DNA of 64,000 nucleotides from an uncultured Lachnospiraceae bacterium (GTDB taxonomy: Bacteria > Bacillota > Clostridia > Christensenellales > UBA1242), in assembly GCA_964594865.1 (NCBI GenBank), contig CAZQMZ010000003.1, positions 11,369 to 75,368 on the forward strand, in the 5' to 3' direction. The notes beneath the pieces were generated by a model, which saw nothing but the letters and a program-made list of their open reading frames with translations, was not told where the DNA came from and did no database searches. Each line of letters starts with the position of its first letter. Within the stretch, counting starts at the first letter, position 1. A program made the translations under genes and the position numbers. Below, piece after piece: positions 7,465 to 42,262 of this stretch.

Positions 7465-7512
7465 ATATGGTGTAGTATGCATTGCGTAATACACCATATT
7501 TTGTGTTATGCA
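7465..7512. repeat. TGCATAAYACAC-type palindromic element, locus A (3 half-sites)
   Basis: ATATGGTGTAGTATGCA-T-TGCGTAATACACCATAT, then TTTGTGTTATGCA; lies between the convergent recombinase and spoIVB genes; the spoIVB stop codon (7506-7508) is inside it. Confidence 0.85.
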
Positions 7513-8681
7513 ATCATCCAATCGACATAAACTCCATATCCTTTTGTTGGATCATTCAAGAAAACATGAGTCACCGCGCCAATGATTTTTCCATCTTGCA
7601 TGATTGGAGAACCGCTCATCCCTTGCACAATCCCGCCGGTCAATTCCAAAAGTCGTTTGTCCTTAACTCGAAAAACGATGCTTTTGTCATCTGCGGATTT
7701 TTGATAACTCGTCTTGATGATTTCAATATCATATTCTTCTCTGATTCCGCTTATTGTGGAAACAATTTTGGCATCTCCCATTTTCACGCTCAATCTTCCA
7801 CCCAACTTTGCCGTGACATTTTCGTCAACAAGCCCAGTGACATCGCTTAAAACACCACTTATTCCAAATTTGCTGTTGCTCTCAATCTCACCCTTACTTT
7901 TCGAACTTGAAAGGAAGACACATTTCAACTGCCCCGGATCATTTTTCTTTCCTTTCTCAATCCCAATCAAATTGCAACCATAGACATTGCCATTTTCGAC
8001 AGGAATAATGTTTCCACTACTTGCTTCTGTGATTGGATGTCCAAGCGCACCAAATTCCAATGTTTGTTTATTGACAAAAGTCAAAGTCCCCACGCCTGTT
8101 ATGTCGTCTTTCACCCACAATCCAAGTTTCAAATTTCCGCTTTCATCATAGGTTGTTTTGAGAATGGTTTTGAAAGTCTTGTTCTTGCGCAAAAATTCCA
8201 CTTCTGTTTCGTCTGAATTTTCTTCCAAAAGACTTTGGACGTCCTCCCAATCCTCCACTTCGTTGCCGTTTATTCGAATGATAATGTCGCCTTCTTTCAG
8301 TGTTCCGCTTTCATCACTGACAACAATCGCACCGTCGGTGTTTATGGCAAGCCCAATTGGCACACCGCCGACATAATATTCTTCATCGCCGGAAAGAACA
8401 ACAGCCACGCGTTTGATTGGAATCAAGCCAAACAATTTAAAGACAATTTCGTTTTGTTTTGCCTTTTGCCCGTCGACAACATTTTCTTTTTCCACAAGTT
8501 GTGAGGTGATAAAACTGCCAAATTTATGCGTCTGATTGACATTTTCCACATCCGAATAATCTGCCAAAAATCCCCCTTCCAAAGAATAGAGATCTCGAAG
8601 CGGAAGAACTATGGAAAAACTGAACAGAAAGACAAAAAAGAATACAACCAAACAAAGACAACTTTTGTAATTTTTTCTCAT
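7506..8681 (-). CDS. spoIVB: SpoIVB peptidase (S55), sporulation signalling protease
   Basis: signal/TM segment, PDZ segment (GDIIIRINGNEV), catalytic GALGHPI and GMSGSPI motifs. Confidence 0.9.
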   Translation of the reverse strand: MRKNYKSCLCLVVFFFVFLFSFSIVLPLRDLYSLEGGFLADYSDVENVNQTHKFGSFITSQLVEKENVVDGQKAKQNEIVFKLFGLIPIKRVAVVLSGDEEYYVGGVPIGLAINTDGAIVVSDESGTLKEGDIIIRINGNEVEDWEDVQSLLEENSDETEVEFLRKNKTFKTILKTTYDESGNLKLGLWVKDDITGVGTLTFVNKQTLEFGALGHPITEASSGNIIPVENGNVYGCNLIGIEKGKKNDPGQLKCVFLSSSKSKGEIESNSKFGISGVLSDVTGLVDENVTAKLGGRLSVKMGDAKIVSTISGIREEYDIEIIKTSYQKSADDKSIVFRVKDKRLLELTGGIVQGMSGSPIMQDGKIIGAVTHVFLNDPTKGYGVYVDWMIA

Positions 8682-12121: not shown

Positions 12122-13780
12122 TTAGTTATGTAAAAATAACTTCTTTGCGTGTTCCAACGCAGTTTGTGAGATTTCGTTTCCATCGTCAATCAATCGTGCC
12201 ACTTCAAAAACCGCCTGATTTTTGTCAAGTGATGCCACCGTGGAGATTGTGGAAGAATTGACAACATCCTTTTTGACAAGCAAAAACTCATCCGCTTTGG
12301 ACGCCACAACAGCTGTGTGCGTGATGCAAATGATTTGTGTGTATTTTGATATATTCACCAGCTTTTCGGCAACTTTTCCCGCCGTTTGACCGCTCACACC
12401 GGCATCAATTTCATCAAAGATGACTGTTTGCACAAAGTCTTTTTCCAACATAACATTCTTGAACGCCAAAAGCAGTCGCGAAAGTTCTCCGCCGGATGCC
12501 GTCTTATGCAAATCTCGAATCTCTTGCCCAACATTTGCCGAAAACATAAATTTCACAACGTCGAACCCTTTGCGTGTGAACTCTCCCCTTTCAAAATCAA
12601 CTTTGAAATTTGTGCCCACCATTTGCAAATCTTCAAGTTCGTGACAAAGGCGGTCTTCAAAAACTTTTGCAAATTTCTTTCGCAATTCACTCAATTTTGT
12701 GCATGCATTTTCAAGTTGTTGTTGGATGACAACCTGCTCTTTTTGCAGTTTTTCCAAAGTTTCTTGACTGTTTTCCAACTCTTCCAATTTTTGTTGGCAT
12801 TTTTCTTGATAGTCCAAAATGTCTTCGATTGTCTTTCCATATTTCTTTGACAGTTTCTTTATAAGATCCAAACGTTCATCAATTCGCTCCAATTCCTTTG
12901 GGTCAAATTCAGTGTTTTGCTTGACTCCATCCAGAACTTCTGCCACATCCTTGATTTCATAATAACAATCTTCAATGCGTTGTCGACATTCTTCAATCTC
13001 TTTAAAGTTTGAAAGCGCCGAAAGACAATTTTTGACTTCATACAAAAGCCCTGTCACATTTTCACGATCTTCATCGAGTTTGCCCACTGCCAAACCAACA
13101 CTCTCAAAAATCTTTTCGGAAGACGAGATAAATTCAAACCTTTCGCGCAGTTCTTCCGCCTCACCAAGTTGCAAATGAGCATTTTCAATTTCGTCAATTT
13201 GATATTCCAAAAGTTCTTTTTCGCGCAGACGTTCACTTTCACTTCCGCCAAGAGCAGAAATCTTTCTCTTGACATCTTGAAGGTCGTCATAAAGTCGTTC
13301 AACCTCACCTTTCAAATTTTCCACATCAGCGCCGGCAAATTTATCCAAAAGCAAAAGGTGATTTTTGACATTCAAAAGACCAACGCTATCATGTTGCCCA
13401 CAAAAGTCCGCCAACTTTTCAGAAAGTGTTTGCAACATTTTTGCGGTTGCCGGAAAGCCATTCACTTTGACAGAAGACTTTCCTTCCTGAGAGAGTGTGC
13501 GCGAGATGACAAGCTCATCCTCGACATCAATTTCCCATTCACGCAAAACATCTTTCTCGCTTTCAGACAATTCCACAAACACCCCATCAACCCTGAGAGA
13601 AGCTTCGCCAGAGCGAATCAAATTCTTATCCGCCTTGGCACCCAACAAAAAACTTAAAGCATCAATGATGATGCTCTTGCCCGCACCCGATTGACCCAAA
13701 AGACAATTGAAGCCATTCTTAAATTCTATTGTTTGTTTTTTGATTAAAGCAACATTTGTCAAAGTTAAAGATGAAAGCAT
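12122..13780 (-). CDS. recN: DNA repair protein RecN
   Basis: Walker A GQSGAGKS, long coiled coil, C-terminal ASGGELSRLLLA and IFDEIDAGVSG; start set at MLSSLTL (GAGGAA SD); downstream of argR as in Bacillus. Confidence 0.93.
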   Translation of the reverse strand: MLSSLTLTNVALIKKQTIEFKNGFNCLLGQSGAGKSIIIDALSFLLGAKADKNLIRSGEASLRVDGVFVELSESEKDVLREWEIDVEDELVISRTLSQEGKSSVKVNGFPATAKMLQTLSEKLADFCGQHDSVGLLNVKNHLLLLDKFAGADVENLKGEVERLYDDLQDVKRKISALGGSESERLREKELLEYQIDEIENAHLQLGEAEELRERFEFISSSEKIFESVGLAVGKLDEDRENVTGLLYEVKNCLSALSNFKEIEECRQRIEDCYYEIKDVAEVLDGVKQNTEFDPKELERIDERLDLIKKLSKKYGKTIEDILDYQEKCQQKLEELENSQETLEKLQKEQVVIQQQLENACTKLSELRKKFAKVFEDRLCHELEDLQMVGTNFKVDFERGEFTRKGFDVVKFMFSANVGQEIRDLHKTASGGELSRLLLAFKNVMLEKDFVQTVIFDEIDAGVSGQTAGKVAEKLVNISKYTQIICITHTAVVASKADEFLLVKKDVVNSSTISTVASLDKNQAVFEVARLIDDGNEISQTALEHAKKLFLHN

Positions 13781-13851
13781 TTTCGTTCCTCTATTTTGAT
13801 TATAACACAACATCATAAATTTTTCAAACTAAATTGAACAAAAGTGAAGAT

Positions 13852-13886
13852 AAAAAAAGTTGATTTCATTCTTAAACGAAATCAAC
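13852..13886 (-). terminator. rho-independent terminator (or attenuator) between argR and recN
   Basis: GTTGATTTC-N10-GAAATCAAC plus U7 on the minus strand. Confidence 0.7.
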
Positions 13887-13924
13887 TAAATTAAAGCAAT
13901 GGTCCTATCCAATAAGCCAACTAA

Positions 13925-14377
13925 TCACATCATCATCTGTTGTAGAGTGGAAACAGACTCGCTGGCAAAAGTTGTGGTTGGAAAAATCAACATCACTGTG
14001 TCGTCGCCATAAGTTGCACCCATAAGTTCTGATAAATTGAGTTTGTCGATGAAAGAGCAAACGCCAGAGCCCATACCTTTGATTGTCCTGATCACCACCA
14101 AGTTGAGAGCACTCTTCACAGAGATGACGCTTTCTTTGAAGATGTTTATGTATTTGTTGGACACGACTTGCTGTTCAGAACCCAAAATGGCATATTTATA
14201 TTTTCCCGAACTGCCTTGAATTTTTGTCAAACCCAACTCTTTGATATCACGAGAAATTGTCGCTTGAGTGATATCAAAGTTGGCGTTTTTCAATTCACGA
14301 GCCAATTCTTCTTGTGTTTCAATCTCTTTTGTGGAGATAAGTTCCAAAATTTTTGATTGTCTTGAACTTCTTGCCAT
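13925..14377 (-). CDS. argR: arginine repressor
   Basis: R(Q)SKILELI..ETQEEL..L....FDITQATISRDIKEL wHTH; C-terminal GTIAGDDT-like GATYGDDTVM. Confidence 0.92.
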   Translation of the reverse strand: MARSSRQSKILELISTKEIETQEELARELKNANFDITQATISRDIKELGLTKIQGSSGKYKYAILGSEQQVVSNKYINIFKESVISVKSALNLVVIRTIKGMGSGVCSFIDKLNLSELMGATYGDDTVMLIFPTTTFASESVSTLQQMMM

Positions 14378-21103: not shown

Positions 21104-21140
21104 TTGAGTATGAAAAAAGTTGTGGTATAATCAAAAAATG
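21104..21140 (+). promoter_or_regulatory. promoter abutting the pseudouridine synthase start codon (leaderless candidate)
   Basis: TTGAGT (21104-21109), 16 nt, TGgTATAAT (21123-21131), 6 nt, ATG (21138); no SD. Confidence 0.6.
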
Positions 21141-22055
21141 AGAAAATTCGAAAACAATTTTGAAACGCTTAACATTGAAGAAATCTCTTCGCTCAAACAA
21201 CCAACAATTTTCTTTTTTTTGAAAGAGCATGGCTTTTCGGAACATTACATTAAAGACCTACGCCACAAGAAAGATGGCATTCGCCTTAATGGTGTTCCTG
21301 TTACCATCCGAGAAAAAATAACGATCGGAGATGTTCTTGAAATCGCCAAAAATCCAAGCGCACCTTCTCAAATTGATTTTTGTGAAGGAGATTTAGACAT
21401 CATCTTTGAAGATGAAGATTTTCTCATTGTCAACAAACCTCACAATCTCGCCTGCATCCCAACTCGTTCTCATTATGCCATGAATTTGGGTGGACAGATT
21501 TGCAAATATATGCAAGAAACTCTTGAACAGACAGACTTTGTCCTTCGTATAGCCAATCGGCTCGACCGTGAAACCGCAGGGATTGTGGTAATTGCCAAAA
21601 ATGTTCTCGCATACAACTCCTTGAACTTGCAAAAAGAATATCACGCAATATGTAAAGGAAAAGTTGAGCAAAACATCACCATAGACAAACCCATTCTCAC
21701 GCTCACCCACAATGGCATCAACCAACAAAAACGAATTATTTCTCCAAACGGCAAACCTGCCGTCACCCATGTTGAAATTTTGCAATATCTTCAAGACCCC
21801 TTGCACCGAAAAGATTTAACACTTGTGAAATTGAAACTCGAAACCGGCAGGACACACCAAATTCGTGTTCATATGTCAGAAATTGGACATCCACTTGTTG
21901 ACGATAGTATATATAATTCAAATTCACAAAACTTTGAAAATTCTTCTCACACAATGTTACTTCTCAAAAATATAGTTTTTACACATTTTCGCACAGGAAA
22001 AACAGTCACCTTGTCTGTGCCATATCCTGACGATTGGAAAATATATAAGATCTAA
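21138..22055 (+). CDS. RluA-family pseudouridine synthase with N-terminal S4-like domain
   Basis: RLDRETAGIVVIAK catalytic-Asp motif and GRTHQIRVHM; start set at MRKFEN. Confidence 0.88.
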   Translation: MRKFENNFETLNIEEISSLKQPTIFFFLKEHGFSEHYIKDLRHKKDGIRLNGVPVTIREKITIGDVLEIAKNPSAPSQIDFCEGDLDIIFEDEDFLIVNKPHNLACIPTRSHYAMNLGGQICKYMQETLEQTDFVLRIANRLDRETAGIVVIAKNVLAYNSLNLQKEYHAICKGKVEQNITIDKPILTLTHNGINQQKRIISPNGKPAVTHVEILQYLQDPLHRKDLTLVKLKLETGRTHQIRVHMSEIGHPLVDDSIYNSNSQNFENSSHTMLLLKNIVFTHFRTGKTVTLSVPYPDDWKIYKI

Positions 22056-22062
22056 AAATAAA

Positions 22063-22091
22063 AAACCACGGGTTTTGCCTGTGGTTTTATT
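22063..22091 (+). terminator. rho-independent terminator after the pseudouridine synthase gene
   Basis: AAACCACGGG-ttttg-CCTGTGGTTT plus T-run. Confidence 0.8.
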
Positions 22092-22132
22092 TAACAAAAA
22101 TTTAAAAATTCTTTTTCTTTTTCATTTATATT

Positions 22133-22154
22133 AACTGTCGAAAATTGTTATAAT
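22133..22154 (+). promoter_or_regulatory. promoter copy 1 with embedded Spo0A box upstream of the Rho-like gene
   Basis: AACTGTCGAAAATTGTTATAAT: 0A-box TGTCGAA (22136-22142) 6 nt upstream of the extended -10 TGTTATAAT. Confidence 0.5.
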
Positions 22155-22214
22155 TATTTTAATTTTTCAAAATTTTAAAAAAATTTAAAAAATTTTTTTG
22201 TTTTTATTTGTAAA

Positions 22215-22236
22215 AACTGTCGAAAACTGTTATAAT
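22215..22236 (+). promoter_or_regulatory. promoter copy 2 with embedded Spo0A box upstream of the Rho-like gene
   Basis: AACTGTCGAAAACTGTTATAAT, 21/22 identical to copy 1 and 82 bp downstream; TTGTAA -35 at 22208-22213 with a 17-nt spacer; TGTCGAA lies inside the spacer. Confidence 0.55.
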
Positions 22237-22278
22237 AGTTCTGGTTTTAAGAAATTTTACAAAATAAGGAGTCTTTTT

Positions 22279-23454
22279 ATGTCAAAAAAAATCGATTATG
22301 AGTTTAAAAATCTAAGTGAAGCAGATCAAGCGTGTCTGTCAGTTATCGAATCACTTGGAATCTATGAGCTCAGAGCGCTTGCTCGAGTTTTTGGCGACAA
22401 TTCGCCAACAGTCTTGAAGAGAAGCGATCATATAAAGTTTGTCATGAACAAAATTTTGTCCGGAGAAGATTTGAAACCACTCCCACTTCGTCCAGGCAGA
22501 CCATATAAAGAACTCTCCAACATTGAAGGCATTTTGAGACAACTTTCTCAAATCACAGGAAAGAACTATTCCCTGACCCCAAACATTGATTCGCGCGCAA
22601 AAAAAGTGGTGTCTTTCAATCAAATTGAAGATGAAATATATTTAAAAAAATCTTGCCCAATTGAAGTTCAAGGAATTGTTTGTGAGAGCGAAGATCAATA
22701 TGTTTTGTCCGACCAAAACAGCGGAAAATTTATTCTTATACCAAAAAGTTTGGATGAAAAAATTCGTCCTTATGATTTTGTTGTTGGTCAAGCAATTTTG
22801 ATGAACAACAAAGGAGAATATATTCTTGACAAGATTACTTCAATCAACTTCCAAGAACGAAAAAATTTCGACGCCAAAGCTGACCCATATATTGAAACAA
22901 TTCCAAGCGAAAGTTTTGAAATTGAAAACAAAAAAATTCTCTTAGGTTCAAGATATTTGCTCAAAGTCACAAAGTTCAGCGAAAAAGCAGAAAAAATGAA
23001 AAAACTTTTGAAGACTTTTTCAACCAAAAAAATCATCACTCTCGCAATCACCCCAGATGTTTTCCCAGAAGATATGGTTGCAACAAACTCGCTTGGTTTT
23101 TCAAACGTGTTCATGAGCAAATATGACGATTCACCTTATGCAACCTATGAAATGTTCAACACTTTTGTTAACCATGTCAAACATCTTCAAGAGCAAGGCT
23201 TGAAAATTGCCGTATTTGTTGAAAATATCACATCCATTGCAAATTCCATCGACTATGTCAACAAAAACAGCATAAAGTCATTTATGGGACACACAGAAAA
23301 TGCTGTCAATATGATCAAACAACTTGTTTCGTTGGCGAAAGCGGGAGAAGGAAATAAGCACACCACCCTAATCACTTCGTTAGACGAATCTGACATGTTC
23401 GACCAACTTTATGTCAAATCTGTGTATAAAGTTTCAAAATTGATTGAATTATAA
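22279..23454 (+). CDS. Rho-fold protein with degenerate ATPase motifs (Rho_N-like plus OB/CSD-like plus RecA-like core lacking a P-loop)
   Basis: by-eye alignment to B. subtilis Rho. GIYELRALARVF aligns with Rho_N. VQGIVCESEDQYVL..ILIPKSLDEKIRPYDFVVGQAIL aligns with the CSD. GSRYLLKVTKFSEKAE replaces GQRGLIVAPPKAGKT. ITLAITPDVFPEDM aligns with LLIDERPEEVT, VFVENITSIANS with LMDSITRLARA, and TTLITSLDESDMFDQLY with TILATALVDTGSRMDDVIY. AAGGAG SD. Confidence 0.55.
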   Translation: MSKKIDYEFKNLSEADQACLSVIESLGIYELRALARVFGDNSPTVLKRSDHIKFVMNKILSGEDLKPLPLRPGRPYKELSNIEGILRQLSQITGKNYSLTPNIDSRAKKVVSFNQIEDEIYLKKSCPIEVQGIVCESEDQYVLSDQNSGKFILIPKSLDEKIRPYDFVVGQAILMNNKGEYILDKITSINFQERKNFDAKADPYIETIPSESFEIENKKILLGSRYLLKVTKFSEKAEKMKKLLKTFSTKKIITLAITPDVFPEDMVATNSLGFSNVFMSKYDDSPYATYEMFNTFVNHVKHLQEQGLKIAVFVENITSIANSIDYVNKNSIKSFMGHTENAVNMIKQLVSLAKAGEGNKHTTLITSLDESDMFDQLYVKSVYKVSKLIEL

Positions 23455-23560: not shown

Positions 23561-23591
23561 AAAAAAACACGAATTGATCTCGTGTTTTTTT
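23561..23591. terminator. bidirectional terminator between the Rho-like and lipoprotein genes
   Basis: A7-CACGA-attgatc-TCGTG-T7. Confidence 0.7.
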
Positions 23592-23600
23592 AATTCAATT

Positions 23601-25115
23601 TCATGCCGAATGTCTTGAAGAAATGGTTGTTTTACTCAAAAGTTCATAGTTGTGCGTCGAACCCGACAAGTTGACACGATAGAGATAATAATTTTCATCT
23701 GTTTCATCATCGTCGTCATCGTCATCTTCATCTTCAATTTCTTCAAGTTGTGCATAGAAATATAAATAAGTTCCGTCATAAGCACCAAGTTCAGCATCAT
23801 AAATTGCTGTCATCGAAAGGATTGTGTTGCAAGTCACGTTGACTGCAGTGTTTGAAGTTTTGTTGAAAGCAGTTGAAAGGTCCGCTGAATAAATTCCCGT
23901 TGTTGTTGAGAAATAAATCTTTCTTCCGTCAATTGCAAGAAGGTTGAAATCAGAACCTGTCAGTTCGGTTGATGTTCCGTCCACATCCGCTGTGAGAGTG
24001 ATCACACCCATTGCGCCATTTGAATTTTTGTATAAAAGATTTCCATCAGTGTTATAGAAAATGTAACCAACCGTCTTGTATGAAACATTCCCTGTGCTTG
24101 AAGTTGTTGCTGAAACGATCAAATTTATGCCACTTGCTTCACCACTATAGAAAAGGTTTCCAACAATTCCGCCTGATGTCGTTTGGAAGTCGTTTGTTTT
24201 TCCTGACATATCAGCATAATATGTTGCAACGATGCTGTTGCTGTCGGTCTTGGTGTAGAACACAACGTCATTTTCGCGACCAATCAATTCAATTGTTTCA
24301 CTGTAGCTTGAATAATATTCTTGTGCAGTTCCGCCAGATAATTCAATTCCCATGATTCTTGTTAAGGTTCTGCTTGAACCACTTTCTGTTGTTGAAGAAA
24401 GAGTGTAATAGATGATGCCGTTCCAATCAAGTGTGCTTCCAGCCTTGCTTTGTTGATATGTTTTTGAAATTGCAATGCTTGTGACATCTTCAGCAATTGT
24501 TTCTGCTTTGTTTGTTGAAAGATTGATTTTGATCAAGTCTGTCCCTGCAAGCATAACGATGTAATACACCCCGTCCACTTTCAGCACTTCAATGTCTGTG
24601 ATTTCACCCACGGTTGTGTAGAGTTTTGATTTGTTGTTGCCGTTCAAACTGCTTTTATATATGCAGGTATATGTGTAGTTATATGAATTTCCGTCCGAAC
24701 TTGAAACCACTTGTCTGTTTGGTGTGGCATAATAGATTGTCTGCCCAAGCACAAACATGAAGTTGCCTTCATAACCTGTCACTTCAGAAGAAACAGTTTC
24801 GACGTTTGCTGGAGAATAGTCCCCACTCGTTGCTCCCAAATCAGCATTTGTGTTGAGTCTTGCAAGATATGTTGTCTTTGCACTTGACTTATAATCGCTG
24901 TCTGATGAGAAGCTCGAAGCATCAACAACAGAGTTGGCGTAATAAAGATAGCCATCCACCATAACTGCGGAATTGCCGTAATACAAAATCTCGTTGCTGG
25001 AATTTGTTATATTTCCCACTGTTGCACAGCCAGCCAGCCCGCAAGAAAGGCAAAGGACACAAAGCGCAACGCAACATACAATTTTTATCCAATTTTTAAG
25101 CGCAATGTTTTTCAT
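23601..25115 (-). CDS. secreted lipoprotein with repeated Tyr/Ser/Thr-rich beta-propeller-like units and a poly-Asp tract
   Basis: signal peptide with lipobox LAGC; recurring ..IYY/LYY/FYT.. strands (DUF5050/YWTD-like by eye); EEIEDEDDDDDDDETDE near the C-terminus. Confidence 0.7.
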   Translation of the reverse strand: MKNIALKNWIKIVCCVALCVLCLSCGLAGCATVGNITNSSNEILYYGNSAVMVDGYLYYANSVVDASSFSSDSDYKSSAKTTYLARLNTNADLGATSGDYSPANVETVSSEVTGYEGNFMFVLGQTIYYATPNRQVVSSSDGNSYNYTYTCIYKSSLNGNNKSKLYTTVGEITDIEVLKVDGVYYIVMLAGTDLIKINLSTNKAETIAEDVTSIAISKTYQQSKAGSTLDWNGIIYYTLSSTTESGSSRTLTRIMGIELSGGTAQEYYSSYSETIELIGRENDVVFYTKTDSNSIVATYYADMSGKTNDFQTTSGGIVGNLFYSGEASGINLIVSATTSSTGNVSYKTVGYIFYNTDGNLLYKNSNGAMGVITLTADVDGTSTELTGSDFNLLAIDGRKIYFSTTTGIYSADLSTAFNKTSNTAVNVTCNTILSMTAIYDAELGAYDGTYLYFYAQLEEIEDEDDDDDDDETDENYYLYRVNLSGSTHNYELLSKTTISSRHSA

Positions 25116-25317: not shown

Positions 25318-25356
25318 TTGACTTTAACTCGTCTTTTGAACTATAATTTCGCTATG
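25318..25356 (+). promoter_or_regulatory. promoter abutting the lgt start codon (leaderless candidate)
   Basis: TTGACT (25318-25323), 18 nt, TATAAT (25342-25347), 6 nt, ATG (25354); no SD. Confidence 0.55.
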
Positions 25357-26202
25357 AGTCTTTCCATTCCAAAAGGTTTCAATATTGGAAATTTGCCAAT
25401 CACTTTCTATGGAGTGATCAGTGCTTTTTGCTATCTTCTTGGTGTGATCATCACCATAATAAATGCCAAAAAACGCAGGTTTTCGACAGAAGACATAATC
25501 ACACTTGCTTGTTATGTCATCCCGCTGTGCATCGTTGGCGCAAGGATTTATTATGTTCTTTTCAGTCTTGATTCATACACAAATTTTTGGGAGATATTCA
25601 ATCTCAGGGAAGGCGGACTTGCTTTCTATGGCGGTTTGATTGGTGGAACAATTGGTGTGGTGCTTTTTTGCGTCATTCACAAGAAAAATTTTTTGGCTCT
25701 TGCGGACATTGTCGTTCCCGGACTTATCCTTGGGCAAGCGTTGGGACGTTGGGGAAATTTCTTCAATCAAGAAGCATATGGCTATACTGTCACCGACCCT
25801 GATTGGCAATGGTTTCCATTTGCGGTGTTTATTGATGACGTCAAGAGTCATTCAGGATGCACATGTGTTGGCTGGCATTTGGCGACATTCTTCTATGAAA
25901 GCATTTGGAATCTTTGCGTCTTCATCGTCTTGATGTTTTTGCTATATCGCGTCGACTTCAAGAAAAACGGCATTATTGGAGGGCTTTATCTCGTTCTCTA
26001 TGGTGCCGGAAGAGTTTGGATTGAAGGTCTTCGCACAGACAGTTTATATTTGGGAAGCATTCGCGTTTCGCAACTGTTGAGCATTTTGTTCATCATCGCC
26101 GGGCTCACTTTGGTGATTTATCAGTCGGTGAAAAGATATCTTGAAAAAAGAAAAGAAAGTTTCAACATAATCATGAGAGTTTTGAAAAAGGATTTGAAAT
26201 AG
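25354..26202 (+). CDS. lgt: prolipoprotein diacylglyceryl transferase
   Basis: GRWGNFFNQEAYG signature, GARIYYV, 7 TM; start set at MSLSIPKG. Confidence 0.92.
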   Translation: MSLSIPKGFNIGNLPITFYGVISAFCYLLGVIITIINAKKRRFSTEDIITLACYVIPLCIVGARIYYVLFSLDSYTNFWEIFNLREGGLAFYGGLIGGTIGVVLFCVIHKKNFLALADIVVPGLILGQALGRWGNFFNQEAYGYTVTDPDWQWFPFAVFIDDVKSHSGCTCVGWHLATFFYESIWNLCVFIVLMFLLYRVDFKKNGIIGGLYLVLYGAGRVWIEGLRTDSLYLGSIRVSQLLSILFIIAGLTLVIYQSVKRYLEKRKESFNIIMRVLKKDLK

Positions 26203-26235
26203 TTTAAAATTTCATCTTTTCGGCATAATAAAAAC

Positions 26236-26730
26236 ATGAATGGACGTGTTTTTGGAATCAAAAAAAGCACCTTGCTCAACCTTTCGGCAATTTTTATATT
26301 TGTTGCCTTTGTGATATATCTTTTTCTTTCAATTTTTCTGTGGAAAAATGCTGAACTCTGGTTTTTCGGTTTCTGTCTTTTTGTTGGAAGTTATGAAATT
26401 GTCAAAAGTATGCTTTTCAAATTTGACAGTTGCGTTTATATTGGTTCTCTTCTTCTTTTCATCGGCATTTTTGGATTTATCTTTTCTCACAATGTCGCCT
26501 ACGCTCCATATTTCATTTCGCTTGCGTTTATCCTTGCATCGCTTGTCACATGTCTTTTGTGCGGACATAGATTTCATTTGATTGTGGCATTTTCGATCTT
26601 TTTCGTGGGATTTTATTGCCTTTTATACACAATAAATTTGATAACCCTAACAATTTTGCTTGCATTTGTCCTTCCGTTTTTGCTATTATTTATATTGGAG
26701 ATTATATGGATATGTTTTCACAAGAAATAA
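26236..26730 (+). CDS. polytopic membrane protein, unknown function
   Basis: 164 aa, 5 hydrophobic helices, no recognised motif. Confidence 0.5.
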   Translation: MNGRVFGIKKSTLLNLSAIFIFVAFVIYLFLSIFLWKNAELWFFGFCLFVGSYEIVKSMLFKFDSCVYIGSLLLFIGIFGFIFSHNVAYAPYFISLAFILASLVTCLLCGHRFHLIVAFSIFFVGFYCLLYTINLITLTILLAFVLPFLLLFILEIIWICFHKK

Positions 26731-27335
26731 ATGGATACAATAAAAACGAAGTCGACAGCTATATTCAGCGACTCAAAGTCAGCTATGAAGCAAAATTGAT
26801 GGAAGAAAAACTCAAAGCTCTTGACAGCGAAAAACGTATTCTGGACTTGAAGAACGAGCGCTCTGAAATCGAAAACAAAGAAAAGAACATTCTCAATGCT
26901 TTGAGCGTGTTTGAAAAAGCGAAAAAATTTGAAGAAGAGGGCACAAAAAATCTTAATAAACTCATCATAGACAAACTTGAATATTTGGTCAAGGAACTAA
27001 ATTCGCATTTTCCACAACTCAAAAACGACAAAATTTTTGAAGACATAATGAGCGAATTTTCAAGTATTATGAAAAGTTATCGCCAAAATCTTGACAGGAT
27101 GTCTGACATCACCCGCCCAATTTTTTCGGATAACGACAGCATGCGTATGCTTTTGAACAAGATGCAAGACTATAAAAAGGTTCAAGATTTTCCAAAAGAA
27201 GTGCATATCACCACAAAAAAGACTCTCCGTGATTTTCCAATCAGCGAAAGTGGTTTCAATTTTGAAGAAGCTCTTCATCCAAAAGAAGACTTGTCCGAAA
27301 TCATGAAAGCATTTGATTTTTATAACGAAAACTAA
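26706..27335 (+). CDS. DivIVA-domain coiled-coil protein
   Basis: start set at MDMFSQEINGYNKNEVDSYI (F..GY...EVD.fl DivIVA N-terminal signature; GGAG SD); coiled coil follows. Confidence 0.62.
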   Translation: MDMFSQEINGYNKNEVDSYIQRLKVSYEAKLMEEKLKALDSEKRILDLKNERSEIENKEKNILNALSVFEKAKKFEEEGTKNLNKLIIDKLEYLVKELNSHFPQLKNDKIFEDIMSEFSSIMKSYRQNLDRMSDITRPIFSDNDSMRMLLNKMQDYKKVQDFPKEVHITTKKTLRDFPISESGFNFEEALHPKEDLSEIMKAFDFYNEN

Positions 27336-27370: not shown

Positions 27371-28327
27371 TCACATAAACAAACTGACAAGAAAACCGCT
27401 GACTATTCCAATTCCATATTGCAAAACGAGAATGCCTAAATTTTGAAGCGGATGTTTTCTGTTTTTTGTCCAAAGGATGATCAGTCCCACACCCGCACCT
27501 GCTGTCAAGCCTGCAAGCAGTGCTGGGAAGGAAAGTGTGCCAAAGAGAAAAAGTTCTGTCAAAAGCACAGAAGATGCACAGTTTGGAATCAATCCAATCA
27601 ACCCTGCAATGAGAATTTGAAAATATGGATTTGTTGTGAGAAGACTGCTCAAAACTTCCGTTCCGCAATAGTTGACCACCAAATTGAGCACAAACGTTGC
27701 GACAAAGATATATATGGCAATGTTGAAAGTGTGATCAAACGCTTCTACAAAAATGTTGTTTCCACAGCAACTTCCATGTTGATGTCCACAGTTGGCTTCG
27801 CACTCTGTTGAATGAATATGCCCGCATTCGTGCACATGAGAATGTTCATGCTCTTTGTTTTCTTCTTCAATCTCATCGTGCTCATGTTCATGTTCTTCAA
27901 TTTCAACAACAAATTCATGTTTTCGTCTTGGACGTATCACCAAATCAATGAGATATCCCCAAATGATTGCCAAGACAAGTTTTATGCCAATAAGTTCAAG
28001 CATGCTCACCACACTTTCGACATTCGACAACATGATTGGAATGGCTTCATCCGAAGTGGCAATGAAAACCGCAACAAGAGTGCCAAGCGAAACACGGCGT
28101 TGAGAATATAAATCAGAAATCACGGAAGAGAATCCACACTGAGGAACACATCCAAGAAGAGAAGCATAAAAAACACTGAACTTACTGTTTTTTGAAAGAA
28201 ACTTTGTGAATTTATGGCTGTGATCATGCGACAAAAATGCCACCAAAAGATAGGCAAGAAAAAGGATTGGAACGACTTTCAAACAATCCACCACGGCATC
28301 ATATAAACTTTCAACAAAAATCTCCAT
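27371..28327 (-). CDS. putative heavy-metal transporter (ArsP_2-like 10-TM family) with a His/Cys-rich cytoplasmic loop
   Basis: LLGCVPQCGFSSV..IATSDEAIPIML motif; loop EHEHEHDEIEEENKEHEHSHVHECGHIHSTECEANCGHQHGSCCG; start set at MEIFVES (AAGGGG SD), and the track's TTG start lies inside the -35. Confidence 0.6.
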   Translation of the reverse strand: MEIFVESLYDAVVDCLKVVPILFLAYLLVAFLSHDHSHKFTKFLSKNSKFSVFYASLLGCVPQCGFSSVISDLYSQRRVSLGTLVAVFIATSDEAIPIMLSNVESVVSMLELIGIKLVLAIIWGYLIDLVIRPRRKHEFVVEIEEHEHEHDEIEEENKEHEHSHVHECGHIHSTECEANCGHQHGSCCGNNIFVEAFDHTFNIAIYIFVATFVLNLVVNYCGTEVLSSLLTTNPYFQILIAGLIGLIPNCASSVLLTELFLFGTLSFPALLAGLTAGAGVGLIILWTKNRKHPLQNLGILVLQYGIGIVSGFLVSLFM

Positions 28328-28352
28328 ACTTGCCCCTTTCGCAGTCAAGTCC

Positions 28353-28404
28353 ATTGTATCACATACAAAGCTCTTTTTCAAATATATTTGAAAATTATTT
28401 CAAA
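28353..28404 (-). promoter_or_regulatory. promoter of the His-rich metal transporter plus an adjacent near-palindrome (candidate metalloregulator operator)
   Basis: minus strand: TTGAAA (28376-28381), 17 nt, TACAAT (28353-28358). The 18-bp near-palindrome TTTGAAAATTATTTCAAA (28387-28404) lies just upstream of the -35. Confidence 0.5.
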
Positions 28405-38132: not shown

Positions 38133-39365
38133 CTATTCACCAAAACAAACAGACAAAGGCTCTTTGCTTTTGAGTGAACGGTTTGTTATTCCGTTGACGT
38201 TATAGAAAAAAGTTTGTCCAACACGCAAAAATTTTTCAGAACCTGAAATGACAAGAATTTTTTTGTAATATTCTCCATTGAAAACCCCCAGCTCCCGCAA
38301 CTCAATTTGTTTGAAGTTGACAAATGAAAGTTTGTTTGAGCCTTTCATGAAAAGACGTTTCAGTGTGAGATATTTTTCTTCCAATTTTTCGTCAATCTCT
38401 CCATTAAGCCAATTTATCCAAATCTTTTGTGGAAGAGAACGATTAAAGAAAAAGTCAAATTTTGGATTTTTGGTTTTGACTTGTAGATTGAAAATTTCGC
38501 AACATTTGACACGTGCAATTTCCTTAAATTTCACGATGTCATGAAATCCTTTGAACGAAAAACTCTTTTCTCCAAAATTGAAAAAGACAAAACTTTCTTC
38601 TCGACCAGCAAGAGTGAGTTTAACTTTGACATTAATGCAAGAGAAAATGGAATTTTCCAAACCGTCCACTTCCGAAAAAGAAAATTTTGCATTTCGACAG
38701 ATGAAATTTAAATATGACTTTTCTCTCGTCAACAAATTTTCCACCAAAATGCTTTTTGCAAGTCTTTTGAAAAAATAATATCCTTTTTGAAGAGGAAGGT
38801 TGAATTCAACGACAACACTTTTGGTGTCTTTGCTCGAATTTTGTATTTTCAAAAAATGGTTGTTTCCATTGAGCACAAATTCTGTATAATCCACGAAAAA
38901 GTCATCAACAACAAGTGTTTGATGCAAGGAAAAATCTTCAAAATTTGGATTTAAAATTTGATTGTTGACCTTGAAAAACTTGTCCTTGAAAAGCAAGTTA
39001 TAGTTTGAAGAAGATTGATAGTTTATGTTGAGTTTGTTGATCATCTCTAAGAACGCTTTTGAACTTGTATGTTTGCTGAAAATAACAACATTATTCAATC
39101 TCGACAACCTTTTTTCTTTACTTCGGTCGAAACTGTCAGTGGAAATCAACAAATTGAATTTTTCTTCTTTTTCGGCAAGTTCGAATGCTTTGAGAAGAGG
39201 TTTTGTCAGTTGTTTTTCAAATTTAAATATCGGTTTTTCAACATCCACACCGTGTTCAAAAAGGATACGCCGATCCAATTTGTCGTCATACACAATTGGT
39301 GCATGAAATCTCACACGGTTCAAAATAGATTTTTTTGCTCTTTCGATATATTCCTTCTTTGTCAT
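38133..39365 (-). CDS. hypothetical protein, Lys/Phe/Asn-rich, no recognised domain
   Basis: long ORF codirectional with ddl; start uncertain, MTKKEY chosen because the upstream extension overlaps an intergenic repeat; no SD at either candidate start. Confidence 0.45.
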   Translation of the reverse strand: MTKKEYIERAKKSILNRVRFHAPIVYDDKLDRRILFEHGVDVEKPIFKFEKQLTKPLLKAFELAEKEEKFNLLISTDSFDRSKEKRLSRLNNVVIFSKHTSSKAFLEMINKLNINYQSSSNYNLLFKDKFFKVNNQILNPNFEDFSLHQTLVVDDFFVDYTEFVLNGNNHFLKIQNSSKDTKSVVVEFNLPLQKGYYFFKRLAKSILVENLLTREKSYLNFICRNAKFSFSEVDGLENSIFSCINVKVKLTLAGREESFVFFNFGEKSFSFKGFHDIVKFKEIARVKCCEIFNLQVKTKNPKFDFFFNRSLPQKIWINWLNGEIDEKLEEKYLTLKRLFMKGSNKLSFVNFKQIELRELGVFNGEYYKKILVISGSEKFLRVGQTFFYNVNGITNRSLKSKEPLSVCFGE

Positions 39366-39411
39366 GGATTGATTATTGCCAATCTGTGTGAATTTTAGAC
39401 ATTGCAAATCT

Positions 39412-39490
39412 TGCATACATGATGTGTAAATCTTACACTACATAATGTGTGGTATGCAACATAATACGCTATATTTTGTGGTGGTATGCA
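39412..39490. repeat. palindromic element, locus E (4-5 half-sites)
   Basis: TGCATACATGATGTG; CATAATGTGTGGTATGCA; ACATAATACGCTATATTTTGTGGTGGTATGCA; lies between the rnpB terminator and the next gene. Confidence 0.8.
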
Positions 39491-39926: not shown

Positions 39927-41285
39927 TCATCCAACGTTGAAAATTTGTTTAACTTTTCCTTGTTTGTCAACACTGAACCCTTGCATAATTCCATCTTGCG
40001 AAACTTTGATTGCCACACCATATTTTGCCATTGTTGTGGTTGCTGCAAGTCGCCCGCCACCAAGACTGCCAGCTTCAATTTTGATGATTGCACCAACAGC
40101 AATGATTGTGCCGTCATAGTCAATGATCGTTGCACCATCCACAGATGTCATTTCTTCGATAAGTTTTCTGTCAAGCTCAAATAACTTTTTTCCGCCAACA
40201 ATTTTTCTTATTGCCGTGGTCTTGACTGACTTTGTTTTGTTTAAAAAGTCTTCATACGACAAACTAAATTTTTCAATGATGTTCTTTGCATTGCCGATGT
40301 TATAAAGTTTTTCCGCTTCTTCAAGTTCCAACTGCTTTTTCATATTGAAATGTTCTTCGGAAATGATGTCAGACGCATCGATGTGATTGAGAGCTTCCAA
40401 AGTCTTATCTTTGTTGATATAGGCAATGCACGCGCCATTATATGAAAATGAACAATCCAAAGCAGTGTTGTATATTGCGCGCCTGATCTGCTTTGCACCA
40501 AAAGAAACATTGCTTTGCAAAAGCCTGATGATTTCGTCATGAGAATAGACGCACCAACGCCCATTTCGTTTTGCAAAAAGAAGTTGGTGGGCAGCAAAAA
40601 TCAAAATGTCCGCCTCTTCTGTCAAAACAATTCCAATTCTTCTTTCACTGCAAACCCTTGCCAATCTATCAAAAATGTTTGGCGAAATTGTTGGAACAGT
40701 TTTTGTTCGCTTTAAGTTGAGATAGCCAAGAAGATTCCCGTGTTTGTCAAACTCCAAAAATGAAGAAATACCATCTGTGAAGAGAGCAAAGAAATCGTGT
40801 GACATAATTTGTTGATAGTTCACTTTTGTTGAACTTTCGCTCGTCAATGCCAAATTGACCAAAATTCCAAGTTTGACTTTGGAACCTTCATAACTTCTTG
40901 CTGCCCAACTTTCAAGATAGCTGATTATACCCAAAATTGTGTCCGCCCCGCTTTCCGTGATGCTTTCTATAAGCGCTCTTTCAATCGCCAAATTGTATAG
41001 ATGAATCAAATACATCTTGTCGGTGATGTGCATCAAAGCGATGTCATTGATTTCACGAATAATCGAACGAATGAGTTCCACCTCAAAAGTTTTGAACGCC
41101 TGTCCACGTTTTAAGATAAGACGATAGTCATCCGATTTTGAAGGTTTCAACAAAATGGTGTTGCCCTTTCCAAGCGCAACTTCCATATCCCTTGAAGAAG
41201 ATTCTGTCTCTCCAACAAGATTTGAACCGGTGAACAAAGGGACAATAAGTTTGCCAACAATATCATAGAATTCAAGTTTTTCCAC
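39927..41285 (-). CDS. DisA_N (diadenylate-cyclase fold)-like protein with a divergent active site and an unknown N-terminal region
   Basis: C-terminus VDGATIIDYDGTIIAVGAII...GGGRLAATTTMAKYGVAIKVSQDG aligns by eye with the CdaA DAC core HDGAVI..GTRHRAA..IIVSEETG. A second weaker DAC-like half lies at about aa 170-260. GTG start with AGGAGG SD. Confidence 0.55.
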   Translation of the reverse strand: MEKLEFYDIVGKLIVPLFTGSNLVGETESSSRDMEVALGKGNTILLKPSKSDDYRLILKRGQAFKTFEVELIRSIIREINDIALMHITDKMYLIHLYNLAIERALIESITESGADTILGIISYLESWAARSYEGSKVKLGILVNLALTSESSTKVNYQQIMSHDFFALFTDGISSFLEFDKHGNLLGYLNLKRTKTVPTISPNIFDRLARVCSERRIGIVLTEEADILIFAAHQLLFAKRNGRWCVYSHDEIIRLLQSNVSFGAKQIRRAIYNTALDCSFSYNGACIAYINKDKTLEALNHIDASDIISEEHFNMKKQLELEEAEKLYNIGNAKNIIEKFSLSYEDFLNKTKSVKTTAIRKIVGGKKLFELDRKLIEEMTSVDGATIIDYDGTIIAVGAIIKIEAGSLGGGRLAATTTMAKYGVAIKVSQDGIMQGFSVDKQGKVKQIFNVG

Positions 41286-42151: not shown

Positions 42152-42262
42152 AAAATCTCCTACAATGAGATATATGTTGATTTTTGTCAATTTTTGCCTA
42201 AATGTTTAAAAATAAGACAACTTTCTTGGATGCAATTTGCACTGAGCAAATGTTTGTAGTGA

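Follow-up and report, generated by a model that had tools for sequence, protein, structure and literature searches.

The window examined here, a 64-kb (64,000 nt) stretch of DNA, encodes a strongly conserved descendant of the transcription terminator Rho that keeps the fold of Rho, as judged from a predicted structure and profile alignments, but has lost every part of its ATP motor. We refer to this 391-aa protein as RhoL. It represents a clear and so far undescribed case of a bacterial motor protein that, on the sequence evidence, has been turned into a non-enzymatic factor in uncultured spore-forming gut Clostridia. A first-pass annotation, made from the sequence alone, had described the gene as a Rho-fold paralogue with its Walker A and Walker B motifs destroyed. 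The observation of a Rho-like protein lacking an ATPase site is confirmed, whilst the interpretation placed on it is only partly supported, as set out below.

Relationship to Rho and loss of the ATPase site

The reading frame is genuine, and the longer 418-aa ORF starting at a TTG codon is an artefact, because all homologues start M-[SAT]-K-K at the ATG. The single sequence gives only marginal matches to Rho: it scores 16.7 bits against a curated cut-off of 315 and 13.2 bits against 509 for the NCBIfam models TIGR00767 and NF006886, weak hits in the PDB, and no Pfam hit to Rho_N, Rho_RNA_bind or ATP-synt_ab. Profile and structure methods supersede these searches and place the whole-length likeness to Rho far beyond chance. 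The AF2 model has a pLDDT of 86, and its top 50 Foldseek hits against the PDB are all Rho, with E values of 1e-16 to 1e-13, a probability of 1.00 and about 400 alignment columns (gaps counted) against chains of 345–419 residues. Profile–profile alignment (hhalign) against 29 canonical Rho sequences gave 92.8% and E=4e-7 over 294 colinear columns, with residues 19–368 aligned to Rho 2–319 from the Rho_N bundle through the OB fold to the RecA core. A family profile searched against the PDB returned Rho for 9 of the top 10 hits (best E=7.8e-4). Finally, a chain of intermediate homologues matches the NCBIfam Rho models over their full length at 1e-20 to 1e-53; for example, the family member P0206 is found by the RhoL profile at 2.7e-16 and hits NF006886 at 7.9e-53. 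Relatives also hit Pfam Rho_RNA_bind and Rho_N (PF07498, a SAP-LEM-like HeH domain), the latter at 1e-8 to 2e-3, with only three of nine (P0223, P0262 and P0206) reaching the gathering score.

The motif pairings proposed in the first-pass annotation were reproduced by HMMER and MAFFT alignments. KVTKFSEK sits where Rho has PPKAGKT, ITPDVFPED sits where Rho has LIDERPEEV, VFVENITSIANS aligns with ILLDSITRLARA, and TTLITSLDESDMF aligns with LTIIATALIDTGSKM. Two of its labels require correction, however. The LIDERPEE segment of Rho is not Walker B but carries the catalytic Glu211 and the Arg valve Arg212, whereas Walker B is the ILLDS strand (Asp265), which had been assigned to the Q/R-loop region. 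A further loss had been missed: the protein ends at about Rho residue 345, so that Phe355, the Arg366 finger and the C-terminal helices are absent, and all 51 close homologues examined end within 4 residues of the same point. None of these 51 has any [AG]xxxxGK[ST] motif, and a P-loop is found in 3 of 129 representatives of the broad family. At the positions of Glu211, Arg212 and Asp265 the family consensus is V/M/Q-E.

The residues that contact RNA in Rho have fared no better. In the primary site Phe62, Phe64, Tyr80, Glu108 and Tyr110 are replaced and Arg66 is gapped, whilst in the secondary site Thr286 of the Q-loop is gapped and Lys326 of the R-loop is replaced by Met. The suggestion that RhoL retains RNA- or DNA-binding surfaces is thus not true for the known surfaces of Rho, and the OB domain is acidic (pI 4.5), in contrast to residues 1–124 (pI 9.2). 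The features of the locus are collected in Table 1.

Table 1. Features of the RhoL locus (window coordinates; residue numbers refer to RhoL unless marked as Rho)
Position	Strand	Feature	Basis
22125–22154	+	Predicted upstream promoter copy P1: TTTATA, 18-nt spacer, TG-extended TATAAT; 0A-box TGTCGAA at 22136–22142 in the spacer	Promoter scan (10/12 match with TG); sequence; exact motif
22208–22236	+	Predicted proximal promoter copy P2: TTGTAA, 17-nt spacer, TG-extended TATAAT; 0A-box TGTCGAA at 22218–22224 in the spacer; the copy conserved in orthologues	Promoter scan; sequence; exact motif; same architecture (TGTCGAA, 3–4 nt, TGnTATAAT) in 26/43 close orthologous loci, mostly at -50 to -80 from the ATG on the coding strand
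22266–22271	+	Ribosome-binding site AAGGAG, 7 nt before the ATG	Sequence; AAGGAG conserved in the orthologous loci
22279–23454	+	CDS of RhoL, 391 aa, from ATG at 22279 to the stop codon at 23452–23454 (included)	ORF list; 137 close homologues of the same length
22318–22461	+	Residues 14–61: three-helix Rho_N-like (HeH) bundle; Leu31, Arg32 and Arg36 conserved in at least 98% of the broad family, Pro43 and Thr44 in 97–99%	AF2 helices 14–24, 28–37 and 48–61; hhalign pairs residues 19–58 with Rho 2–41; relatives hit Pfam Rho_N; one of the most conserved regions
22462–22563	+	Residues 62–95: family-specific insertion, a low-confidence loop with P-L-R-x-G73-R74-P75-x-K77 (GRP at 22495–22503; AT-hook-like) and helix 82–93	Loop pLDDT 44–66; Gly73 and Arg74 100%, Pro75 99%, Lys77 94% across 119 diverse members; absent from canonical Rho; highest conservation in the protein (0.83 identity)
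22651–22854	+	Residues 125–192: OB/cold-shock-like domain equivalent to Rho_RNA_bind, primary-site aromatic residues replaced	Five strands in the model; relatives hit Pfam Rho_RNA_bind; F62Q, F64V, Y80L, E108G, Y110E
22906–23451	+	Residues 210–391: RecA-type core equivalent to Rho 155–345, truncated before the C-terminal sub-domain of Rho	HMMER, hhalign and Foldseek alignments; multiple alignment ends at Rho ~345
22963–22986	+	Residues 229–236, KVTKFSEK: degenerate P-loop position (Rho A178–T185)	K181F, G183E, T185A; helix in the model starts at residue 233, leaving a 4-residue loop
23047–23073	+	Residues 257–265, ITPDVFPED: equivalent of Rho LIDERPEEV; catalytic Glu211 changed to Val, Arg valve Arg212 to Phe	Alignments; family consensus here N-V-M-x-E-D
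23212–23226	+	Residues 312–316, VFVEN: Walker B strand equivalent (Rho ILLDS); Asp265 changed to Glu; family-conserved Asp316 is Asn in this protein	Alignments
23561–23591	+	Intrinsic-terminator-like hairpin shared with the convergent lipoprotein gene; RhoL is monocistronic in this window	Terminator scan; sequence

Conservation, genomic context and the promoter region

RhoL is not a relic. Its dN/dS is 0.03–0.12, and it occurs in at least 114 GTDB species, all represented by MAGs of uncultured gut Clostridia, with one hit per assembly among the 80 loci listed. Examples of near-complete genomes that carry it are the assemblies with contigs JAZRRN01, JBJFCL01, CAJJUK01, CAKNGB01 and CALWJY01 and the 602-kb scaffold ERZ28617943 scaffold_2, with GCA_002919055.1 for the long form. 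The family is large (405 clusters at 50% identity), has no Pfam entry, is not known to have a characterised function (the first-pass annotation likewise knew of none), and is absent from viral contigs, so that a phage origin is rejected. The gene order RhoL, lgt, a TM ORF and a DivIVA-like ORF is kept in 78 of 85 loci, spanning orthologues that are only 22–28% identical, although RhoL diverges faster than its neighbours (25% identity against about 52% for Lgt). Among 51 sequences there are 42 invariant columns, including the new GRPxK motif absent from Rho. Constraint is concentrated on the N-terminal helix bundle and on this inserted loop, and the RecA-like core is the least conserved part of the protein. 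A ‘GH[TS]E’ loop (His338) is also conserved.

The first-pass annotation had tied the gene to the sporulation decision through Spo0A-box promoters, and a link to Spo0A is supported at the level of sequence. An exact TGTCGAA lies in the promoter spacer in 26 of 43 close orthologous upstream regions, against a background of about 0.07 per 300 nt, and the window encodes a SpoIVB peptidase and a SigK-type sigma factor, both above curated cut-offs. Long-form relatives lie directly after spo0A..veg-sipL-spoIIR-sleB-ypeB. On the other hand, 17 of the 43 close orthologues lack an exact box, the more distant syntenic orthologues use a consensus TTGACA promoter without it, and TGTCGAA is generally over-represented in this window (26 against 14 expected). 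Searches by tblastn with approximate B. subtilis Spo0A and RpmE query sequences gave no hits in the DNA available. The box is a predicted regulatory site, confined to the closer half of the family.

Interpretation and alternative origins

We consider that RhoL is a catalytically dead, C-terminally truncated descendant of Rho, a reading we hold with moderate confidence. What the analysis itself establishes is that the protein keeps the Rho_N helix bundle, the OB fold and the RecA-type core; that it lacks the P-loop Lys/Thr, the catalytic Glu, the Arg valve, the Walker B Asp, the Arg finger, the adenine-stacking Phe, the key Q/R-loop residues and the primary-site aromatic residues, and therefore cannot be an ATP-driven RNA translocase; that it is under strong purifying selection, single-copy (within the listing given above) and syntenic; and that constraint has moved from the motor domain to the N-terminal 95 residues, above all to an inserted, probably flexible loop with an invariant RxGRPxK motif. 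Different members of the family keep different relics of the active site, and of the 8 members tabulated across all catalytic sites, including the 3 that still have a P-loop, none has the full set. The function, by contrast, is inferred. RhoL would work without ATP as a nucleic-acid-binding factor (for AT-rich DNA or RNA) or as an RNA-polymerase-associated factor, with binding through the HeH bundle plus the AT-hook-like loop and with the dead RecA-like core serving as a passive, probably oligomeric, scaffold. The hexamer-forming surfaces suggested in the first-pass annotation likewise remain an inference, and the ATP-bridged interface of Rho hexamers is gone. In this clade the gene would be transcribed from an extended -10 sigma-A-type promoter whose spacer holds a Spo0A box, and Spo0A~P would therefore switch it off at the onset of sporulation. 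This would parallel the situation in Bacillus subtilis, where the SigA promoter of rho is silenced at stationary phase and a fall in Rho is needed to start sporulation (PMC11599450).

Rho is one of the best-understood molecular motors and is usually among the most conserved bacterial proteins. That this family keeps the fold under strong selection while discarding the whole ATPase and both known RNA sites means that the Rho scaffold must have a second, motor-independent use. The family offers a graded natural series for the study of how pseudoenzymes arise, flags hundreds of ‘hypothetical proteins’ in abundant but uncultured gut Clostridia, and, through the conserved Spo0A box and the neighbouring sporulation genes, provides a testable new link between Rho-type proteins and the sporulation decision. 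It also matters for annotation, since surveys of Rho presence or absence that rely on domain hits will score these genomes inconsistently.

A tentative alternative is that RhoL is the only surviving rho gene of the lineage, an orthologue that decayed in place in small, AT-rich genomes and was repurposed, in which case these bacteria would have no Rho-dependent termination. The single copy and stable synteny fit this view, as does the resemblance of its predicted regulation to that of B. subtilis rho. The labelled relatives (Candidatus Caccovivens, GTDB family UBA1242, order Christensenellales) have genomes of about 1.1 Mb at 34% GC (PMC8035907), and Rho is absent from 30% of Bacillota and from small AT-rich genomes, although most Clostridia keep it (PMC11347177). 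A motif scan found no canonical Rho in the window, and a tblastn search with E. coli Rho over 1.45 Mb of related loci found only the divergent long form, in two loci (L004 and L005). All of this DNA covers one genomic neighbourhood, however, and is uninformative as to whether RhoL is a paralogue, the term used in the first-pass annotation. A canonical Rho locus (L091), among the closest full-length canonical Rho hits to P0262 (a P-loop-bearing long form), belongs to a distant organism, with a Pta only 46% identical to that of the window, and cannot speak for this clade. Furthermore, even the P-loop-bearing family members are only 26–32% identical to any canonical Rho and are equidistant from Rho of many phyla, a pattern that fits an old duplicate better than a recent decay.

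It is less likely that RhoL is a true paralogue that coexists with canonical Rho and acts on it, either poisoning or tuning Rho hexamers by co-assembly or competing for partners such as NusG or RNAP, as a pseudoenzyme regulating its active relative. The deep divergence from all canonical Rho predates loss of the P-loop, 462 species carry more than one protein with Rho domains, ‘Rho-like’ partial proteins are reported in 421 species (PMC11347177), and control by Spo0A would give such a modulator a role in timing. Against this, co-occurrence is a presumption on present evidence, the C-terminal sub-domain and the nucleotide-bridged interface that hold Rho rings together are missing, and the low conservation of the RecA-like core is unexpected if it had to keep fitting a highly conserved partner.

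A bolder and unlikely reading combines several of these elements: in a whole clade of small-genome, spore-forming gut Clostridia (Christensenellales UBA1242-like), the only descendant of Rho would have stopped being a motor and become an ATP-independent DNA/RNA-binding regulator built around a newly acquired AT-hook-like loop, switched off by Spo0A so that its disappearance, like the fall of Rho in Bacillus, is part of the decision to sporulate. The living intermediates of the family (P-loop present but Glu211/Arg366 lost; then P-loop lost; then C-terminus lost) would record, step by step, how a ring helicase turns into a pseudoenzyme.

Two further possibilities can be set aside. A decaying relic or pseudogene might explain the loss of all catalytic motifs, the differing relics among relatives and the faster evolution than neighbouring genes, but is contradicted by the dN/dS values and is at odds with the invariant columns, the conserved promoter and RBS, and the full-length ORFs recovered from metagenome databases in 114 species and 405 clusters, even though gene-calling and tblastn hits would under-sample disrupted copies. 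Chance resemblance of another RecA-fold protein, such as a non-catalytic F1/V1-ATPase-like subunit or a RadA/KaiC-like protein, could be entertained from the marginal single-sequence hits and from the ATP-synt_ab fold shared by Rho and F1 subunits, but is contradicted by the Foldseek, hhalign and intermediate-homologue evidence.

Comparison with related proteins and promoters

The closest known protein is Rho itself (E. coli, PDB 1PV4/3ICE), with which RhoL shares domain order and predicted fold. The alignment is colinear with Rho residues 2–345, and RhoL retains Gly171/Arg173 (‘GxR’), the ‘PE[ED]’ of RPEEV and the helix after Walker B (‘ITxxAxx’). Besides the losses described above, it lacks Rho residues 346–419, carries an insertion of about 60 residues with the GRPxK motif, and shows an inverted conservation pattern, the N-terminus being more conserved than the motor.

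Extra or partial Rho-domain proteins have been noted in many genomes, including the Type 4 or ‘group B’ short Rho (PMC11347177) and paralog_Rho2 (NCBIfam NF041509). These lack the N-terminal domain but keep a functional ATPase, whereas RhoL is the reverse. Intermediate members of the RhoL family hit NF041509 weakly, but the window protein gives no hit, and the main text of PMC11347177 does not analyse ATPase-dead forms. RecA-type folds retained as structural or regulatory scaffolds after loss of Walker A exist elsewhere, for instance the V1-ATPase B subunit without a P-loop. Those proteins work inside a ring alongside catalytic partners; no partner is known for RhoL, which also differs in having its N-terminal nucleic-acid-type domains as the selected part.

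Like the rho gene of B. subtilis, RhoL is a Rho-family gene with a sigma-A-type promoter (here predicted, and tied to entry into sporulation by sequence evidence only), and as in Spo0A-controlled promoters a consensus 0A box lies inside the core promoter. For B. subtilis the drop in SigA-promoter activity is shown, with no mention of a 0A box in the passages searched (PMC11599450), whilst here the box is a sequence prediction only.

AT-hooks have a GRP core flanked by basic residues in a disordered segment and bind the minor groove of AT-rich DNA. In RhoL an invariant G-R-P followed by Lys and preceded by Arg/Lys lies in a predicted flexible loop of a protein from a 34–37% GC genome, a likeness judged by eye from a short motif, the Pfam AT_hook model being too short to score. 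The motif is single-copy and reads R-P-G-R-P-Y-K in the window protein and R-Q-G-R-P-Y-K in the family, most members having Q/K/P rather than R before the Gly. Some relatives have a full K-R-G-R-P-P-K, as in P0201.

The gene and its relationship to Rho

The coding sequence is real: an ATG at 22279 lies 7 nt after an AAGGAG, and the frame stops at 23452-23454 to give a protein of 391 amino acids, referred to here as RhoL. A longer, TTG-initiated ORF from 22198 was discounted, because all homologues begin M-[SAT]-K-K at the ATG. The gene is flanked by an RluA-family pseudouridine synthase gene and a convergent lipoprotein gene with which it shares a terminator-like hairpin, and further out are pheST on one side and lgt on the other. 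By eye, a hairpin plus T-run (CCACGGG-TTTTG-CCTGTGG-TTTTATTT) can also be seen just after the stop codon of the rluA-family gene, which would insulate RhoL from upstream transcription, although a terminator scan did not list it. The coordinates of these and other features of the window are collected in the table below.

Coordinates of RhoL, its control elements and other features of the window
Position	Strand	Feature
7506-8681, 41456-42190, 12122-14377	-	SpoIVB peptidase and SigK-type sporulation sigma factor, both above curated cut-offs; argR-recN-...-spoIVB arrangement reminiscent of Bacillus, but without spo0A next to spoIVB
21120-22055	+	RluA-family pseudouridine synthase gene
22063-22090		Hairpin plus T-run, by eye
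22125-22154		Upstream copy of the duplicated RhoL promoter
22136-22142		TGTCGAA (putative Spo0A box), upstream copy
22208-22236		Downstream copy of the duplicated RhoL promoter
22218-22224		TGTCGAA (putative Spo0A box), downstream copy
22279-23454		RhoL
23561-23591		Terminator-like hairpin shared by RhoL and the convergent lipoprotein gene
23601-25115	-	Predicted lipoprotein, 504 aa, no family hit
25318-27335	+	Cluster RhoL-lgt-164-aa multi-TM ORF-ORF with a DivIVA-like N-terminus
27371-28381		ArsP-like gene
28016-28029	-	Tandem pair of TGTCGAA, inside the ArsP-like gene
38133-39416	-	Large ORF (427 aa) between ddl and sigK, no Pfam or NCBIfam match
39927-41285	-	Large ORF (452 aa) between ddl and sigK, no Pfam or NCBIfam match
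53323-54195	-	Single ORF fusing a HIT domain to an RNase H domain
59715-61163	-	482-aa protein with an adenylate/guanylate cyclase catalytic domain (E=1.4e-8)

Taken alone, the RhoL sequence gives only marginal signals: no Pfam family, an NCBIfam Rho match at E=0.0024 and 16.7 bits against a cut-off of 315, and PDB Rho chains at E=0.1-0.5. Four stronger tests agree, however. A profile built from 51 homologues found Rho as 9 of its 10 best PDB matches, with a best E-value of 7.8e-4. An AlphaFold2 model (pLDDT 86, pTM 0.71) had Rho as all of its top 50 Foldseek matches in the PDB, with E-values from 1e-16 to 1e-13, a probability of 1.00 and alignments spanning about 400 columns, gaps counted. 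Alignment of the family profile with 29 canonical Rho sequences by hhalign gave a probability of 92.8% and E=4e-7 over 294 colinear columns, pairing residues 19-368 of the query with residues 2-319 of E. coli Rho, whose sequence was first confirmed to be identical to 1PV4. Finally, a full HMMER scan of 1.84 billion representatives with the family profile found 405 clusters, and the more distant of these (the cluster representatives P0206, P0249, P0241, P0223 and P0262) hit the NCBIfam Rho equivalogs over their full length at 1e-35 to 1e-53. They also hit Pfam Rho_N, Rho_RNA_bind and ATP-synt_ab, though all remain below the Rho cut-offs. The homology to Rho is therefore secure.

The ATPase site, the RNA surfaces and the pattern of conservation

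The first-pass annotation described a Rho-like protein in which Walker A and Walker B are destroyed, and this observation held, the loss being more thorough than had been seen. In a 131-sequence alignment that includes E. coli Rho, the P-loop position reads KVTKFSEK (K181F, G183E, T185A), and in the model the following helix starts three residues early, leaving a loop of four residues. The segment LIDERPEEV of Rho has become ITPDVFPED, so that the catalytic Glu211 is now Val and the Arg valve Arg212 is now Phe, whilst the Walker B strand ILLDS has become VFVEN (D265E). Arg269 is Ser, the Q-loop Thr286 falls in a gap and the R-loop Lys326 is Met. The protein ends at about Rho residue 345, so that Phe355, the Arg366 finger and the C-terminal helices are missing. 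None of 51 close homologues has any Walker A motif, and all end at the same point. The motif pairings of the first-pass annotation are right, but two of its labels are not: LLIDE is the catalytic-Glu/Arg-valve motif rather than Walker B, and LMDSITRLARA is Walker B plus its helix rather than the Q loop.

The accompanying interpretation, that the protein retains RNA- or DNA-binding or hexamer-forming surfaces and is tied to the sporulation decision by Spo0A-box promoters, is only partly supported, since the RNA surfaces of Rho are not kept. The primary-site residues are F62Q, F64V, Y80L, E108G and Y110E, with Arg66 in a gap, the OB domain has a pI of 4.5, and the secondary-site loops are altered as described. 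What is conserved is different. Within the close family, residues 14-95 are 72-83% identical to the window protein, against 24-53% elsewhere. Across 119 diverse members the near-universal residues are Leu31, Arg32, Ala35, Arg36, Gly39, Pro43, Thr44, Gly73, Arg74, Pro75, Lys77, Gly132, Gly165 (the family consensus; Tyr in the window protein), Asp166, Asn190 and Gly223, almost all of which lie in the N-terminal half. The window protein departs from its own family at three otherwise near-invariant positions (Q72P, N260D and D316N), and is therefore a slightly derived member.

Residues 62-95 form an insertion that canonical Rho lacks. Its core, P-L-R-x-G-R-P-x-K, lies in a low-confidence and probably flexible loop of the model and, by eye, looks like an AT-hook; the family member P0201 even reads K-R-G-R-P-P-K. 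This reverses the pattern in canonical Rho, where nearly all invariant columns of the 29-sequence alignment lie in the OB and ATPase domains and only two (Leu14 and Gln32) fall in the N-terminal bundle.

Distribution, decay and possible links to sporulation

The gene is not a relic. Pairwise dN/dS between close orthologues is 0.03-0.12. A pattern scan of one genome per GTDB species found 114 relatives, and each of the 80 listed comes from a different assembly. Every listed genome is an uncultured gut MAG, labelled Clostridia, Christensenella, Catabacter, Eubacteriales, Lachnospiraceae, Firmicutes or Candidatus Caccovivens, the last being GTDB genus UBA11517, family UBA1242, order Christensenellales, with a genome of about 1.1 Mb at 34% GC (PMC8035907). 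The gene order RhoL-lgt-(multi-TM ORF)-(weakly DivIVA-like ORF) is kept in 78 of 85 loci (from the set L001-L086), the likeness of the last ORF to DivIVA resting on a Pfam match at E=6e-4, below the cut-off. These loci include a second layer of orthologues that are only 22-28% identical to the window protein. At that distance Lgt is still about 52% identical, and RhoL therefore evolves about twice as fast as its neighbours while remaining constrained. The family is absent from viral contigs.

Only 3 of 129 representatives keep a P-loop (P0223, P0261 and P0262), and these three have Lys in place of Glu211 and Asp or Glu in place of Arg366. Other long forms keep Glu211/Arg212, or even Arg366, but have no P-loop or Walker B Asp. 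Within the P0262 group the P-loop itself can be seen fading, as in P0319 and P0326. Of the 8 members tabulated across all catalytic sites none has a complete set, and different relics survive in different branches, which is the pattern expected once hydrolysis stopped being selected. The long forms (about 440-470 aa, with a C-terminal tail) differ from the short forms (about 360-400 aa) to which the window protein belongs. P0262 is only 26-32% identical to any canonical Rho, and is about equally distant from Rho of many phyla.

The 223-nt region upstream of RhoL holds two copies of AACTGTCGAAAAnTGTTATAAT, 82 bp apart in tandem, each an extended -10 promoter with a weak -35 and an exact match to the Spo0A box (TGTCGAA) in the spacer. 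Most orthologues have one copy, although a few (loci L029, L038, L042 and L044) have two or three boxes. On its own this evidence is modest, because the heptamer occurs 26 times in the window against 14±3.8 expected from shuffles, none of 100 of which reached 26. The conservation is more telling: 26 of 43 close orthologous upstream regions carry an exact box, against a background of about 0.07 per 300 nt, and in nearly all of them the box is on the coding strand, 3-4 nt before TGnTATAAT, while the flanking sequence has diverged. The box is placed at about -25 to -19, which predicts repression. This prediction applies only to the close family, as the second-layer orthologues use a consensus TTGACA promoter without the box.

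The organism does have sporulation genes, since the window encodes a SpoIVB peptidase (325 bits against a cut-off of 305) and a SigK-type sigma factor (257.5 against 252), although spo0A itself was not found in the DNA that could be searched. Together with the argR-recN-...-spoIVB arrangement, these indicate a sporulation programme in a lineage whose labelled relatives have genomes of only about 1.1 Mb. Four long-form relatives (at loci L004, L087, L089 and L090) lie directly after veg-sipL-spoIIR-sleB-ypeB, and in two of these loci spo0A lies just upstream of veg. In B. subtilis the vegetative SigA promoter of rho is silenced at stationary phase, and a fall in Rho is needed to start sporulation (PMC11599450); this is a suggestive parallel, not evidence.

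Possible role, origin and genomic neighbours

The analysis establishes that RhoL is a truncated Rho homologue under purifying selection, ATPase-dead as judged from its lost motifs, with constraint centred on the N-terminal HeH bundle and the GRPxK loop, and we are highly confident that it is a dead Rho descendant with a retained function. How it works is inference from sequence and model. RhoL would act without ATP as a nucleic-acid-binding or RNAP-associated factor, the dead RecA-like core would serve as a scaffold, perhaps oligomeric, and in this clade Spo0A~P would turn the gene off. Nucleic-acid binding by the N-terminus and repression by Spo0A are each, at best, about as likely as not.

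Two readings of its origin remain. No canonical Rho is present in the window or in 1.45 Mb of related loci, but those loci sample a single neighbourhood. Small AT-rich genomes often lack Rho (PMC11347177), which favours RhoL as the sole descendant, whereas the deep, pre-decay divergence from all canonical Rho favours an old duplicate. On present evidence, co-residence with a canonical Rho is no more than an even possibility, and perhaps somewhat less.

These proteins are called ‘hypothetical’ or ‘Rho termination factor N-terminal domain-containing protein’ in sequence records, and no Pfam family covers the close family. The 2024 survey of Rho diversity mentions ‘Rho-like’ partial-domain sequences in 421 species, but defines functional Rho by domain presence and does not, in its main text, describe ATPase-dead full-fold forms (PMC11347177). 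We regard RhoL as a pseudo-enzyme branch of the Rho family.

The predicted lipoprotein next to RhoL carries a poly-Asp/Glu stretch (EDEDDDDDDDETDE), and is inserted between RhoL and lgt only in this window and in locus L008. The long-form Rho-like genes at the four loci named earlier precede a giant ORF of 2,500-2,900 aa with no Pfam hit and then, in the two loci that extend that far (L004 and L089), a TraG/T4SS-coupling-protein-like gene.
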